The notes below the pieces were generated by a model. It made no database searches, was not told where the DNA came from, and was given only the letters and a program-made list of their open reading frames with translations. The position numbers and the translations under genes were made by a program. Positions 18,471 through 24,405 of a stretch of DNA of 30,007 bases are shown piece by piece (positions within the stretch are counted from its first letter, which is position 1; the number at the start of each line of letters is the position of its first letter). Source of the stretch: a virus (lineage: Duplodnaviria; Caudoviricetes); IMG/VR virus record IMGVR_UViG_3300020414_002119, positions 1 to 30,007 of that record, one strand, 5' to 3'.

Positions 18471-19430
18471 ATGGCTACAACAAAGATGACTGGCGATTCT
18501 GTTCGTGCATACCTCCGAGAAATCGGACGTGTGCCTCTTCTTGAGCACGCAGATGAGATCCTGCTTGGTAGACAGGTTCAGCGCTTGATGGAGCTTGAGG
18601 AAAAAAGAAAAGAGCTTTCAGAACTCCATGGTCACAGCATTGACGATCAAAAGCTTGCAGAGCACTACAACCTCGACCGAAAGAGCCTGAGGCGTGAGTT
18701 ACGGGCTGGGAAGAAAGCGAAGGACACAATGGTTACGGCGAATCTCCGTCTCGTCGTCAGTGTTGCCAAGAAATACACGAAGCGGAATATGGAGCTGCTT
18801 GACATTATTCAGGAAGGAACCATTGGCCTAGTTCGTGGGGTTGAGAAATTTGATCCAGGTCGTGGATATAAATTCAGCACTTATGCATATTGGTGGATTC
18901 GTCAAGGCATCACCAGAGCTATTGCTGAGAAGAGCAGGGCAATCCGTCTGCCAATTCACATCACAGAAAATTTGAATCGTCTGAAGAAAGCTCAGAGGGA
19001 CTTGTCTCAGAAGAATGGTTATATGCCGACAGTAGATGAGCTGGCAAAGGAGCTTCAGCTCAAGCAAGATGAGATCAAGGATCTGATGTGCAAAGCCAGG
19101 CACCCTACGTCGCTAGAGGTCAAGATTGGGGAAAACAGGGATACTGCATTGATCGATCTTCTAGAAGATGAGACGCAGCTACCAGACATGCTTTTAGAGC
19201 GTGCTTGTGTGAAGGACGATATTCATGAGCTATTGAATAGCCTGCCCGAGATGCAGTCGACAGTTCTTTGTATGAGATATGGAATTGGAGAAGAAGTACT
19301 TGAGCCGATGTCCATGACGGCCGTAGGTCAAGCGCTAAACATGAGTAGAGACCGCGTTAGAACATTAGAAAACAATGGTCTTAAAGGCCTCAAGGATCGA
19401 AGCAATTCGGTGTCTGAATACTTAGCATAA
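18471..19430 (+). CDS. Phage-encoded sigma-70 factor, RpoD/SigA family (cyanobacterial group-2-like, no region 1.1)
   Basis: Region 1.2 DSVRAYLREIGRVPLL; region 2 ANLRLVVSVAKKY...GYKFSTYAYWWIRQGITRAI; region 4 HTH MSRDRVRTLE. Confidence 0.95.
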   Translation: MATTKMTGDSVRAYLREIGRVPLLEHADEILLGRQVQRLMELEEKRKELSELHGHSIDDQKLAEHYNLDRKSLRRELRAGKKAKDTMVTANLRLVVSVAKKYTKRNMELLDIIQEGTIGLVRGVEKFDPGRGYKFSTYAYWWIRQGITRAIAEKSRAIRLPIHITENLNRLKKAQRDLSQKNGYMPTVDELAKELQLKQDEIKDLMCKARHPTSLEVKIGENRDTALIDLLEDETQLPDMLLERACVKDDIHELLNSLPEMQSTVLCMRYGIGEEVLEPMSMTAVGQALNMSRDRVRTLENNGLKGLKDRSNSVSEYLA

Positions 19431-19457
19431 AATAAGGATAGGTAGAGGGTTTGTCAG

Positions 19458-20129
19458 ATGGCTGATGTCACCAATTCAATAAGTGAGTTTTACGATTCAT
19501 ATGGTGGCAGCAATCTGTCGAACCCTTCTTACTATTCCAGCAGCAAAAGACTAGATCTAAGCTCTGCAACGAACAGCATTATCAATGCCATAGGCCCAGT
19601 TATTACGACAGTGCCGTTTACGCTGAAATACGAAGATAGCGTTGGCTTATTCGGTTCAGAGAACTTCTATGTGAAAATAATGCTGGACATCATCGATACT
19701 GGCAATACACACACCATCATCAACCAATACGCAGGTCTGACAGTATCCGCCGATGCTGCACTTGAAAATACCTATTACATGGCATTTGAGGATGAAGCAT
19801 CAGACTTGACTACCGTAAATACTTATGAGCCATCAGAACGTGGAGCAGGGTTTGCCGATTTAGTTGAGCCAGTCATTAGTCTCGATTTAGAGAATCTCGG
19901 CACTGGCAATATGTATGTTGACCGCCACGTTGACGCTCGTTTATATGACAAGCATTTTAATGAGATAGATGAAGGCACTCAATTAATCGGCAAGCAGGGT
20001 GAGTTTTACCTAGGAGTGCATGCAAGGAATTCAAGACGTCTGCCATACAACATCAATGTAGTCATTGGCAACGCTGTCACATTGAGGAGTGAACTGAGTT
20101 CTGAGCTCGACAGTTCAATCCTTCCTTAG
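19458..20129 (+). CDS. Hypothetical acidic protein, 223 aa
   Basis: ORF with TAAAATAA box at 19428 and GAGG upstream. Confidence 0.75.
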   Translation: MADVTNSISEFYDSYGGSNLSNPSYYSSSKRLDLSSATNSIINAIGPVITTVPFTLKYEDSVGLFGSENFYVKIMLDIIDTGNTHTIINQYAGLTVSADAALENTYYMAFEDEASDLTTVNTYEPSERGAGFADLVEPVISLDLENLGTGNMYVDRHVDARLYDKHFNEIDEGTQLIGKQGEFYLGVHARNSRRLPYNINVVIGNAVTLRSELSSELDSSILP

Positions 20130-20517
20130 CTGTAGAGCGTGGGTCAGAAACCTTCACCCAAAACAAATTATCAAGGAAGCAGTTCATTGAGTCTCCATCC
20201 TTGAAGCCCACCATCGAGCATCCTTTTGTGCGACCGATTGGCGTCATTGGTGGTGGAAGGAAAGCAAGGGCCACAAGACTATGGACATAGGCAGAAATTG
20301 CATTCTTGCGCCCAATGCGCTGTGTCAGATTAACCGTCTGATAGCGACTGCGTTTGACCTTAGGCTTGAGAATTTGATCCTTATTGCGCTTAGTACTCTT
20401 CACTTGCCCCTGCCTATTTACATAGTATTCAATGCAACATTCATAGCCAGGAAGAGAGTGGATCGGAACCCACTCATGATTATCGATAAATTCTTGTACC
20501 ACAATATATTGGGGCAT
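20077..20517 (-). CDS. Free-standing NUMOD4/HNH homing-endonuclease-like protein, catalytic motif degenerate
   Basis: NUMOD4-like EWVPI..PGYE...YYVNRQGQVKS; VHSLVALAF; VGFKDGDSMNCFLDNLFWV in place of the canonical V[DN]HKDGNKxNNxxxNLxWV. Confidence 0.85.
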   Translation of the reverse strand: MPQYIVVQEFIDNHEWVPIHSLPGYECCIEYYVNRQGQVKSTKRNKDQILKPKVKRSRYQTVNLTQRIGRKNAISAYVHSLVALAFLPPPMTPIGRTKGCSMVGFKDGDSMNCFLDNLFWVKVSDPRSTAKEGLNCRAQNSVHSSM

Positions 20518-20595
20518 CTGTAAATATATTCTAGCTTAAGTTTTAATATCTAGATATGTGGCTCAGTCGAAAGTCACAATAAACCATTTAGCTTT

Positions 20596-20600
20596 AGGAG
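20596..20600 (+). promoter_or_regulatory. Shine-Dalgarno site of the capsid gene
   Basis: AGGAG 10 nt before the ATG at 20611. Confidence 0.75.
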
Positions 20601-20610
20601 TTATCCATCC

Positions 20611-23274
20611 ATGTGGATCGATAGAGTGAAAGCTCTCCTGTCGATCTAAAACCGGGTGAATTCAGGGAAGCCGTAACGTATAGACGACGGTAATCCTGAG
20701 CCAAGCCCCTCACGATCTTGAGGGGAAGGTGCAGAGACTACTGGGGGAATCAAGCGTGATTCGTAAAACCAGACCAGCGCCCGGCAACAAGAAATACATA
20801 CCTTGTTGAAGAGATAGTCCGGCCCTTATCGAAAGATTTGGATACGCTGAATGATTTTCCGAAGCTCCTTGGTGCTGAACTCTACAGGCCCCACCCTGCT
20901 TACATCATTGAGATGGCAGTTGAGCCCGTAGTTGTTCACGACTTAAACGCTTGAGTCGTAACTGGGTGAATTCAGGGAACCCCTCCCAACCTTTTTAATT
21001 CGACAGAACCTAGACAAGGAAAACCGGTGACAACCGGAAGTATATTTTTTGGGGAATCCTGAGCCAAGCTCTCCCGACAGGAGAGAAGGTGCAACGACTA
21101 GGTCCCGCGTGGAAACACAGTAATGGACCCAAGAGCGCCCAGCTCCATTTTGGATGATGAGATAGTCTGAACAATACCGATGGGAAAGGTATTGAAGGTA
21201 AAGATAAAGAGCTTTACCGGTAACACAATTGCAGCAAGCAACCCGGTCAAACTGTTCAGTTGGACCGTTATCGCTTCTGGGGTAAACCTGGCACTAAGGA
21301 GTCTCGTGAGCGCACCGCAGATCAAACTCTGGGTAGCGCATCTGCTCGCAACATCGTCAAAGACAAGGTCCTGGTGACGCTAAAATCTCCATTGGCGTCA
21401 CGATAATAAAGAGGGTGAATTGCTGGAAGGCCACCATTAAAGGTTAATCAGCAGCCAAGCTTTTCTACAAGAAAGAAGGTTCAACGACTAGATCCCGAGA
21501 GGTAACTCAGTAATGGATCCACGAGCGCCCTCCACCGTAAAGGTGATGATATAGTCTGATCTATACCAATGGTAAAGGTATAGAACCAAGAGATAAAGAG
21601 CTCTTGGGATAACAACAATGCAAGGAGTACACCGGTCCTGCTGATTCTCGCGATTCTGCACAACCATCCACCTTCAAGGTGGCCCGCGAAACTCTGATCA
21701 CTGCTCAGCGTCTGCTTCTGGACACTGGCAACCTCAACGTCTTCCACCAGTCAATCGGTTCTCTGACACTGCTGGACGACTACCGTCGCTGGCGTAACAC
21801 TGATTGCGCCGCCATTGTGTGAGCAATGGGCAATAACTGGGTGAATTCAGGGAACCCCACCATCAACGGGGAATCCTGAGCCAAGCCAGGCCAACAGCCT
21901 GGAAGGTGCAACGACTAGATCCCGAGAGGAAACTCAGTAATGGATCCACGAGTGCCCAGCATCTCAAGTCTGAGATGAAGATATAGTCTGACCTATAGCG
22001 ATGGCAAAGCTATAGAACCAAGAGATAAAGAGCTTTTGGGATAACATTTGGATCGTGTGTTCGCCAACGAACTGCTTAAGGCCGAAGCCAACGGCCAAGC
22101 TGACTCTGACAAAGGTGGTTATTACCTGCCTGGTGGCAAAGCCAAAGGCGCAACCGGTGGCACCCTCGGTGTTACTTATGCCTCTGGTGAATCCGCCAAG
22201 TTCAGCGTCAAAACTGACCTCCTCGAAGTGGTCAAGGACATGCGTAAGCGCAACGTCCCCACTTTCGCTTAATACCATGGGCGCTTACTTGAGTAATCAA
22301 GTAATGAGCATTCCGTGAATTGCTGGAACCCCTCCATCACTATGGGGAATCAGCAGCCAAGCCAGACCAACAGTCTGGAAGGTTCAACGACTAGGCAAGC
22401 GTGGAAACACGACGAGCCCACGAGCGCGGAACACCCTACTGGGGTGAAGATATAGTCTGAACTACACCGATGGAAAAGGTATAGAAGGAGCGGATAAAGA
22501 GCCGCTTCGATAACAATTTGGATGGTTATTACCGCTGCATCGTGGATCCGACCGCGATGATGCATCTTCGCCAAGACAGCGACTTCCGTAGTGATATTGC
22601 GGCCTTAGTTGGTAACAACTAAGTGAATAAAAGGGTGAATTGCTGGAACCCCTTCAATACATTGGGGAATCAGCAGCCAAGCCAGACCGACAGTCTGGAA
22701 GGTTCAACGACTAGAAGCCGAGAGGAAACTCAGTAATGCTTCCACGAGTGCCCTTCATCCGTTATGGATGGTGATATAGTCTGAACTCAATCGATGAGAA
22801 AGATTGAGAGCCAAGAGATAAAGAACTCTTGGGATAACAATATTGGAAATCGCTCGTTATCCTGGCGCTGGAATGGTGAATCCGATGAACCCCGCTGCGG
22901 GTCCTTCGGCTAACTTCTTCCAAGGTATGGGTCCTGCTTACGGCCAGGCTGGTTTCGTAGCAGGCGCTCCACAAATGCCAACCGGATTTCTCTTCGAAGG
23001 CGTCAGGTGGTTCGAATCTACGAATTTACCTGAAACCTCCTACAACCTCGTTGTGACCTCTGCTTCCTCTAGCGCTGCTGATTACGGTGCCGCTCAGTTG
23101 ATCTTCTTTGGTCCTCAGGCTGTTGGCGTTGGTATTGGTGGTAACAACGCTCAGATTCTGCTCAACAACAACGATGATTTCTCTCGTTTTGTGATCATGA
23201 TCTGGTCCCTGTTTGCTGGCTTTGAAAGTCTGAATTCAGACTTCGTCACAGTCGGATACTCTTTTGTTTATTGA
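20611..23274 (+). CDS. Major capsid protein, 382 aa after splicing; join(20611..20622,20850..20944,21232..21381,21621..21795,22051..22269,22521..22589,22846..23274)
   Basis: Exons of 12+95+150+175+219+69+429 = 1149 nt give a stop-free frame: MWID|NDFPKLLGAELYRPHP...VVHDF|SKQPGQTVQLDRYRFWG...VLVTL|KEYTGPAD...YRRWR|DRVFANE...NVPTFA|DGYYRCIVDPTAMMHLRQDSDFR|EIARY...GFLFEGVRWFESTN...GYSFVY. Capsid identity comes from size, position, strong SD and HK97-fold-like motifs (GQTVQL, FEGVRWFESTN). Confidence 0.9.
20623..20849 (+). ncRNA. Group I intron 1 (227 nt, phase 0)
   Basis: P1 GAUCGAU/GUCGAUC with U.G; P3 CCGGGUG/CGCCCGG; P4 UUCAGG/CCUGAG; P7 GACUA/UAGUC; terminal G. Confidence 0.93.
20945..21231 (+). 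ncRNA. Group I intron 2 (287 nt, phase 2)
   Basis: P1 ACGACUU/GAGUCGU; P3 CUGGGUG/CGCCCAG; P4 UUCAGG/CCUGAG; P7 GACUA/UAGUC; ends CAAUUG. Confidence 0.93.
21382..21620 (+). ncRNA. Group I intron 3 (239 nt, phase 2)
   Basis: P1 GUGACGCU/GGCGUCAC; P3 GAGGGUG/CGCCCUC; P4 UUGCUG/CAGCAG; P7 GACUA/UAGUC; ends CAAUG. Confidence 0.93.
21796..22050 (+). ncRNA. Group I intron 4 (255 nt, phase 0)
   Basis: P1 GGCGU/GCGCC; P3 CUGGGUG/UGCCCAG; P4 UUCAGG/CCUGAG; P7; ends CAUUUG. Confidence 0.93.
22270..22520 (+). ncRNA. Group I intron 5 (251 nt; boundaries may be shifted by +1)
   Basis: P1 CGCU/GGCG; P3 UUCCGUG/CGCGGAA; P4 UUGCUG/CAGCAG; P7; ends CAAUUUG. Confidence 0.9.
22590..22845 (+). ncRNA. Group I intron 6 (256 nt, phase 0)
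   Basis: P1 CCGU/GCGG; P10 AGUGAUAUU with exon GAAAUCGCU; P3 AAGGGUG/UGCCCUU; P4 UUGCUG/CAGCAG; P7; ends AAUAUUG. Confidence 0.93.
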
Positions 23275-23973: not shown

Positions 23974-24405
23974 ATGAGCAAGTTATTCCAAGACAAGAAT
24001 ACAGGTAAACTCGTTGAGTTCATCAGTAAGCATGACAAAGAATTCGCGATGATTCGTGATTCTGGTGGACAAGTGAGTTACGTAAGCTTGGATCAATTGA
24101 TTCCTTACGATCGGGAAAAGGGTCGTTTAACCAATGTTGTTGCTCCTGAAATCACTCCTGAACCTGAAGAACAGCCACCTGAAACCGTGGTGCCTATGGA
24201 AGATACCCGCTTGAATCTAAATTCAGCTACTGCTGAAATCATTCAGAAACGTCTTCCAGGCGTTGGTTATGCGACGGCTAAAAAGGTTGTCGAACTTCGG
24301 ATGTCGCTCTCAGGTGAAAGGTTCACTAACCTGAAGCAACTTGAGAATATTCCCCGCGTCAATTGGGAACAGTTCATTGAGGATGATCTAATCTTTATTA
24401 GTTAA
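23974..24405 (+). CDS. Protein with C-terminal helix-hairpin-helix (ComEA-like) domain
   Basis: LNLNSATAEIIQKRLPGVGYATAKKVVELR...FTNLKQLENIPRV. Confidence 0.8.
   Translation: MSKLFQDKNTGKLVEFISKHDKEFAMIRDSGGQVSYVSLDQLIPYDREKGRLTNVVAPEITPEPEEQPPETVVPMEDTRLNLNSATAEIIQKRLPGVGYATAKKVVELRMSLSGERFTNLKQLENIPRVNWEQFIEDDLIFIS

Follow-up and report, generated by a model that had tools for sequence, protein, structure and literature searches.

The gene that stands head-to-head with the major capsid gene in the window (the whole 30,007-nt stretch of phage DNA analysed here) is likely derived, through domestication, from a homing endonuclease of the free-standing kind. Its product is predicted to bind DNA where the capsid gene begins and is likely to adjust how that gene is transcribed; we give this reading a probability of about 0.5. 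The HNH-like feature itself is real, and it is most probably not a maturase. The life cycle of homing endonucleases usually ends in decay and only rarely in re-use as a maturase or a regulator. In the present marine phage group, which is a common one, a single slot holds armed as well as disarmed forms: the armed form has a target predictable down to one synonymous base, and the disarmed form is under strong selection. Collaborative homing and domesticated endonucleases are already known; our literature survey (few subscription papers, no supplements) returned nothing on this family, on capsid introns of this phage group, on a dead HNH acting as a shield or on an HNH tamed by its own phage. 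Should the dead form regulate or shield its own capsid gene, it would exemplify the taming of an I-HmuI-type HNH by the phage that carries it; short proteins and a 40-bp substrate would suffice to test domestication directly.

The HNH-like gene and its catalytic positions

The first-pass annotation had described an intact 146-aa frame transcribed divergently from the capsid gene, with a NUMOD4-like N-terminus, an HNH scaffold and a lost active site, and each of these points is borne out. The ATG that opens the frame is separated by 93 nt from the capsid start codon (ATG at 20611; Table 1), the longer span reported at first (20077–20610) being this frame plus the intergenic stretch. NUMOD4 scores above the Pfam cut-off (24.3 vs. 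23.4 bits) and HNH_3 below it (15.5 vs. 24.8), while the protein matches PHROG 959 (“HNH endonuclease”, E = 1.3e-16). Searching the PDB with the single window protein gave no match, whereas a profile of 54 relatives matched I-HmuI only (1U3E, E = 1.1e-9); likewise, 1U3E is the only Foldseek match at E ≤ 0.001 of the AlphaFold model (E = 4.7e-6, TM 0.57; mean pLDDT 85). Pfam, profile and predicted model thus agree on the NUMOD4 plus beta-beta-alpha-metal fold of the I-HmuI family. The window protein shares this layout with 1U3E, but the C-terminal part of I-HmuI has no match in it, and the gene is free-standing and conserved across a phage clade, whereas I-HmuI is encoded within an intron.

Table 1. 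Features of the window around the HNH-like gene and the capsid gene.
Feature	Positions	Strand	Evidence
Phage sigma-70 factor gene, conserved neighbour	18471..19430	+	Pfam, PHROG
Conserved 223-aa gene, function not assigned, convergent	19458..20129	+	53-nt overlap with 3' end of HNH-like gene
NUMOD4-HNH (I-HmuI-like) gene	20077..20517	-	ORF call, Pfam, PHROG, profile, fold match
Divergent intergenic region, 93 nt, both promoters putative	20518..20610	.	position
7-bp hairpin, capsid leader	20557..20578	+	paired changes across relatives
Major capsid gene, seven exons, 382 aa spliced	20611..23274	+	intron borders fitted
Capsid exon 1, 4 codons	20611..20622	+	intron border fit
Group I intron 1, 227 nt	20623..20849	+	RF00028 match, border fit
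Group I intron 2, 287 nt	20945..21231	+	RF00028 match, border fit
Group I intron 3, 239 nt	21382..21620	+	RF00028 match, border fit
Group I intron 4, 255 nt	21796..22050	+	RF00028 match, border fit
Group I intron 5, 251 nt	22270..22520	+	RF00028 match, border fit
Group I intron 6, 256 nt	22590..22845	+	RF00028 match, border fit

D74, H75 and N96, which the accessible part of PMC12724721 names as the catalytic residues of I-HmuI, align with G104, F105 and P126 of the window protein (counted along the profile alignment to 1U3E), so that the window protein lacks all three; according to the available portion of PMC3384342, H75 is the general base and the helix Asn a metal ligand. The protein also lacks the C-terminal basic extension seen in intact alleles (defined below) and departs from its relatives at the near-invariant positions G44, G58 and K110. 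Among 82 unique relatives, residue 105 is His in 76, Phe in five and a gap in one, while N117 and N/D112 are each found in 81. H20, C27, C28, H79 and C100 are conserved and, judging from the sequence, might form a metal (Zn) site or account for the retained His105. A tblastn search of the window protein against cultured phages recovered just distant HNH genes (34–37%), and RNA contigs from four runs did not cover the HNH-like gene.

Capsid introns and the maturase reading

Within the capsid gene there are six RF00028 matches, whose borders were fitted against an intron-less relative. Each intron (227–287 nt) is preceded by T and ends with G, and the spliced frame is stop-free; its product agrees with that of L077, whose capsid gene has no introns, at 368 of 383 positions. 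As first reported, the introns appear to encode no protein, the longest stop-free frames within them reaching 45–95 aa; both P7 strands are retained in 6/6. Introns 2–6 are 69–78% identical to one another, hence not recent copies of each other, and 60–68% identical to intron 1. The latter occupies the same site as the introns beside intact alleles and beside the allele of L009, to which it is 83–94% identical; the site of intron 2 is occupied by other introns in phages without an HNH-like gene in the slot, and an intron of L293 matches intron 6 with 86% identity over 243 nt. Capsid introns are reportedly known in mycobacteriophages.

DNA contigs were drawn from four public runs of four other studies. 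One piece, possibly from the source sample, spans 19400–21767 with four differences, and others cover 20391–20743 and most of 21316–22589 with 0–6 differences per piece. Since these contigs span both the junction between the gene and intron 1 and introns 3–5, the layout is not an assembly artefact. One 94-nt RNA piece (four RNA runs) terminates at the 3' end of intron 6. RNA contigs skipping introns 2–5 were considered as splicing products and rejected, because some of their junctions differ in sequence; they most likely stem from intron-less relatives. For intron 1, base pairing of the P1 helix with the four-codon exon 1 beside the start codon is predicted (20611–20650); splicing of this intron may gate capsid translation.

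In the divergent intergenic region, a promoter scan gave three sites vs. 1.5 expected, which is not above chance. The leader hairpin shows paired changes in 50 of 53 clusters, with a loop that is often conserved, and is likely a 5' mRNA element. It was rejected as a specific ligand of the HNH-like protein, given that hairpins of other sequence fold in most leaders of the LAGLIDADG clade described below. A Pfam scan of the 31 ORFs of the window found no other endonuclease; a gene for a HHH_3 (helix-hairpin-helix) protein lies two genes past the capsid gene (23974–24405).

The first-pass annotation had offered the gene as a candidate trans-acting maturase or regulator serving the intron set. A maturase or RNA chaperone acting in trans on the six introns would suit a basic protein that adjoins six ORF-less introns, the more so as L009, of the same His>Phe clade as the window, also carries intron 1. 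The distribution of the gene across relatives nevertheless makes this reading highly improbable. Its closest allele, in L001, has undergone the same change (Y-F at 104–105) and lies beside an intron-less capsid 96% identical to that of the window; the loss of His is therefore not tied to introns. Searches with the HNH-like protein and the last capsid exon yielded 154 loci (some contigs twice), in which the two genes are head-to-head wherever both were found. The span from exon 2 to exon 7 is 1047–1140 nt in all 141 loci where both matched (13 were not measurable), which indicates capsids without internal introns. Among 54 clusters of alleles lacking the metal ligands (ligand-less), 51 + 1 face a capsid gene without a 5' intron, against the proposed service to an intron set. 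Complete genomes tell the same story: in a set of 26 records, six of them at least 90% complete, the only near-complete record with RF00028 matches is G008, which has an intact allele, while G001, G003 and G004 carry open ligand-less alleles without any RF00028 match; G005 and G006 have broken alleles.

Conversely, capsids without the HNH-like gene form a sister clade (support 100), in which the same slot holds a LAGLIDADG_2 gene in 75/75 loci vs. 0/107 HNH-bearing loci. Interrupted capsids amount to 13/68 in this clade vs. 2/58 beside ligand-less alleles, one without intron motifs. Of nine interrupted sister loci scanned, seven are above the Rfam cut-off, three of these loci having the interruption at the intron-2 site of the window. 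In the complete sister genome G027, RF00028 matches the capsid gene four times (two over the cut-off), and the HNH-like family profile has no match; G028 was not counted as devoid of HNH-type genes, owing to two weak profile matches (E = 8e-7 and 2e-5) far from the capsid gene. With open alleles facing intron-less capsids and multi-intron capsids lacking the gene, the protein is neither tied to introns nor needed for them, and the six introns of the window themselves keep both P7 strands; the maturase reading should be dropped. As side observations, one interruption of the G027 capsid is about 960 nt (L431; G027 45374–44412), long enough for an ORF, and the sister slot holds a head-to-head pair of LAGLIDADG-like genes (L233:35–1217, L280:20–1208, L431), the first of which keeps the acidic motif residue while the second appears to be without it, possibly a parallel domestication.

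Allele states, capsid codon 4 and selection

Alleles were called intact when position 104 is D, N, H or E, position 105 is H and position 126 is N or H. After adding loci found with intron-junction patterns and an intact query, 162 of 191 were usable and formed 53 clusters at 90% identity (L158, L161, L163 and L166, pattern matches with neither capsid nor HNH match, were dropped as unrelated, as were L072–L074). In this set, intact clusters have an intron after capsid codon 4 or 6 (12) or GAC at codon 4 (five) and never a plain GAT, while ligand-less clusters have GAT in 32 cases, an intron in two (the window and L009) and GAC in two. Extending the set to 74 clusters gives 20 intact ones (12 whose capsid is interrupted by an intron behind codon 4 or 6, eight with the silent GAT>GAC change, none with plain GAT); 47 of the 54 ligand-less clusters lie beside the predicted sensitive GAT site and 2/54 have a 5' intron. 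All four 5' introns scanned exceed the Rfam cut-off. The two states also differ in median length (168 aa for intact, 121 aa for ligand-less alleles) and in median net charge of the core (+4 vs. +9); at the catalytic positions, ligand-less alleles have mostly K, R, T, A, L or S at 104, and at 126 mostly S or a position beyond the stop codon.

In a held-out test, capsids were chosen by codon 4 alone (the GAT scan took 120 of about 250, with flanks for 80 per scan), giving 205 loci (201 from the scans and four others), of which 57 were too short or broken and 75 had no HNH-like gene. Among the scored loci, intact alleles face 12 GAC and 0 GAT, and ligand-less alleles eight GAC and 53 GAT; limited to unique, previously unseen loci, the counts are 5/0 and 6/25 (p = 0.0012). 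Elsewhere in the capsid gene, Asp is encoded by GAC about half of the time in both allele groups, and the sister clade has 51 GAC and 24 GAT at codon 4 as sampled. On clusters, Fisher's test gives 7e-7, 0.004 and 1.0 at 90%, 80% and 70% clustering, respectively, but it ignores kinship and is not proof; only three phylogenetically independent pairs lie on well-supported branches of the protein tree, for which the sign test is not significant. Moreover, the codon-4 base and the HNH-like gene are about 120 nt apart, and the association is therefore partly due to linkage. Intact relatives are never beside an uninterrupted sensitive site and show no Mantel correlation with their neighbours (small n), and we infer that they represent a mobile endonuclease aimed at the capsid codon 4–6 site. 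The collaborative homing suggested in the first pass thus holds as an association for intact relatives, but not for the window allele, which has no active site and belongs to a set of clusters mostly devoid of 5' introns; the predicted target corresponds to the junction 20622|20850, split by intron 1 in the window.

Once the tree of the 74 clusters is rooted, its scored outgroup rows and early branches carry the intact state (few columns, long outgroup branches), and the window falls within a ligand-less clade of 46 clusters (SH-aLRT 94; 31 clusters at 97/97 in another tree). Among the 20 intact clusters, at least six switches between intron and GAC took place, none yielding plain GAT. Pooled dN/dS is 0.038 for ligand-less alleles (21 disjoint pairs, maximum 0.11), among them two His>Phe pairs of another lineage (0.03–0.05 in the L103 group), and 0.028 for intact alleles (two pairs). 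For the window vs. L001, pS is saturated (0.75) and pN is 0.20, so that the dN/dS of the window's own branch is not computable; their protein distance is 0.29 at a sigma-factor distance of 0.20, compared to a mean of 0.35–0.39 (range 0.12–0.55) for other ligand-less pairs at similar sigma distance. The window lineage therefore evolves no faster than others and gives no sign of relaxed selection, insofar as a saturated branch allows it to be seen. These values lend no support, for the family, to the decaying former homing partner proposed at first and fit the other option, that of a domesticated nucleic-acid-binding factor. Of the refuting outcome named in the first pass, the first part, presence beside intron-less capsids, is observed.

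Ligand-less alleles correlate with four neighbour genes (Mantel rho 0.20–0.39, p = 0.002–0.04), whereas for intact alleles rho ranges from -0.24 to 0.17 (n = 9–13, low power). Intact alleles are dispersed over the tree of capsids (seven changes for nine rows; 41/500 shuffles as low). Catalytic loss, purifying selection and inheritance with neighbours, as awaited from a domesticated regulator, are thus all found in the ligand-less family, the branch of the window being saturated. Codons 3–12 of the capsid gene are unusually constrained in ligand-less genomes, with a top-codon share of 0.85 vs. 0.67 for the rest (rank 2 of 292 windows, a later capsid window also reaching 0.85); another computation gives 0.89 vs. 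0.70 and makes them the most or second most conserved window. In the LAGLIDADG sister clade, the same codons reach 0.62 vs. 0.59 (rank 79 of 226). As the dead genes are synonymous-saturated across the clade, this points to constraint rather than to a recent sweep, and it could act on DNA or RNA.

Proposed history, rival explanations and known systems

Under the preferred reading of domestication, an intact ancestor would have cleaved capsid codons 4–6 at their uninterrupted GAT-AAT site, its own genome being protected by an ORF-less intron there or by the silent GAC (collaborative or intronless homing). Loss of two metal ligands and of the C-terminal extension would then have abolished cutting, while the basic NUMOD4/beta-beta-alpha DNA-binding surface was kept and the gene became tied to its neighbours. 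The dead protein would bind at or just upstream of the ancestral site and would thereby repress late capsid expression or set its timing. The introns of the window would be passengers, intron 1 having likely been acquired through homing, the nuclease gene being left behind, from a donor that carried an intact allele. Because intron 1 splits the predicted site in the window and in L009, the protein would have no action there unless the promoter region is bound; for the window protein itself, both promoter binding and a relic state are thus conceivable from its sequence. Finally, if the protein did nothing but bind, the retention of His105 in most relatives would have no explanation.

Some of these observations would also suit other explanations. 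A dead protein sitting on the GAT site might keep the intact endonuclease brought in by a co-infecting relative from cutting there, homing endonucleases being possible weapons in co-infection (PMC11620839, in its accessible part). The sensitive site beside most ligand-less clusters, compared to the mixed sister clade, and the scatter of intact alleles over the capsid tree, which suggests that they circulate in the same population, are consistent with such a shield; yet a one-base silent GAC would protect equally at no cost and ligand-less genomes keep GAT, while the window and L009 already have a protective intron and still keep the gene open. We regard the shield as doubtful, and hold just as tentatively the wider idea that a single slot provides weapon and shield, with disarmed majority alleles blocking armed relatives as a decoy immunity against homing that is built from the endonuclease itself, and with LAGLIDADG genes having come in parallel to occupy this slot in the sister clade. 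The near-universal His105, N117 and N/D112 would rather suit short alleles that are still nucleases (weak nickases, or enzymes with other ligands or a partner), only the His>Phe alleles being truly dead. This is unlikely, considering the residues found at 104 and 126, the same level of selection on L103-group alleles with His>Phe and the plain GAT that ligand-less alleles tolerate and intact ones avoid.

The family may also be functional elsewhere and the window allele a relic, relaxed since intron 1 split the site. The additional loss of His105, the departures at G44, G58 and K110 and the long branches of the window, L001 and L009 (0.17–0.44 vs. a median of 0.13) go in this direction, but the frame is open in all three, the distance to L001 is below the mean of comparable pairs and pN is low against a saturated pS, which leaves a relic slightly less probable still than residual nuclease activity. 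As for a terminase-associated HNH cofactor of DNA packaging, conserved packaging HNHs do exist (PMC12724721, same partial source) and the gene is a conserved HNH-type gene of the head module; however, it is of the I-HmuI/NUMOD4 type with catalytic residues missing, 6.5 kb separate it from the terminase gene and a LAGLIDADG gene takes its place in the sister clade, which makes that role very improbable.

Collaborative homing is established (PMC6083498, PMC3984707, in the portions available). In its classical case, that of F-CphI and the ORF-less psbA intron of cyanophage S-PM2 (PMC6083498), a free-standing nuclease gene adjoins a conserved gene whose group I intron at the target is ORF-less, an arrangement that intact relatives would fit in 12 of 20 clusters, with a predicted target. 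Unlike F-CphI, they encode an I-HmuI-type protein, with cutting only predicted, at the start of a capsid gene and with two alternative intron sites plus a silent-base option, and the allele of the window itself is dead. Domestication has its own precedents, described here from the accessible parts of the sources. CapR of the Vibrio phage satellite PLE (PMC8096241), a DNA binder on the capsid operon promoter, derives from the DNA-binding domain of a T5orf172 homing endonuclease and represses the helper phage in trans, acting on capsid expression (PMC10448857), whereas the window gene keeps a whole disabled HNH core and would repress, as predicted, in cis beside its own capsid gene. I-TevI autorepresses at its own promoter (PMC2988022). 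WhiA/DUF199 (PMC3384342) is likewise a homing endonuclease fold that has no metal ligands and has been retained for regulation, but it is LAGLIDADG-derived and chromosomal and has a helix-turn-helix domain, unlike the window protein.

The capsid exon matches a single cultured phage, Synechococcus phage S-EIVl (KJ410740), whose uninterrupted capsid is 68% identical over 381 aa; in its 12-kb region, tblastn found neither the HNH-like gene nor a LAGLIDADG gene. We infer a cyanobacterial host, as far as such likenesses allow. Matches to genome contigs at 50–62% fall in four marine MAGs whose taxa differ or are unassigned; a host assignment from them was rejected, these contigs being probably binned phage DNA. 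In many relatives, one or two extra genes (starting with MADSL) follow the HNH-like gene (L025:6392–6880, L078:3095–3757, L097:3178–4393); the window and L001 are without them. The capsid start codon appears to be ATC in L129, L274, L291 and L302, and GTG or TTG in L069, L106 and L126. In KJ410740 (L191:5290–6420), an antisense ORF and a 3' piece are annotated over the capsid gene, which is likely a mis-annotation.
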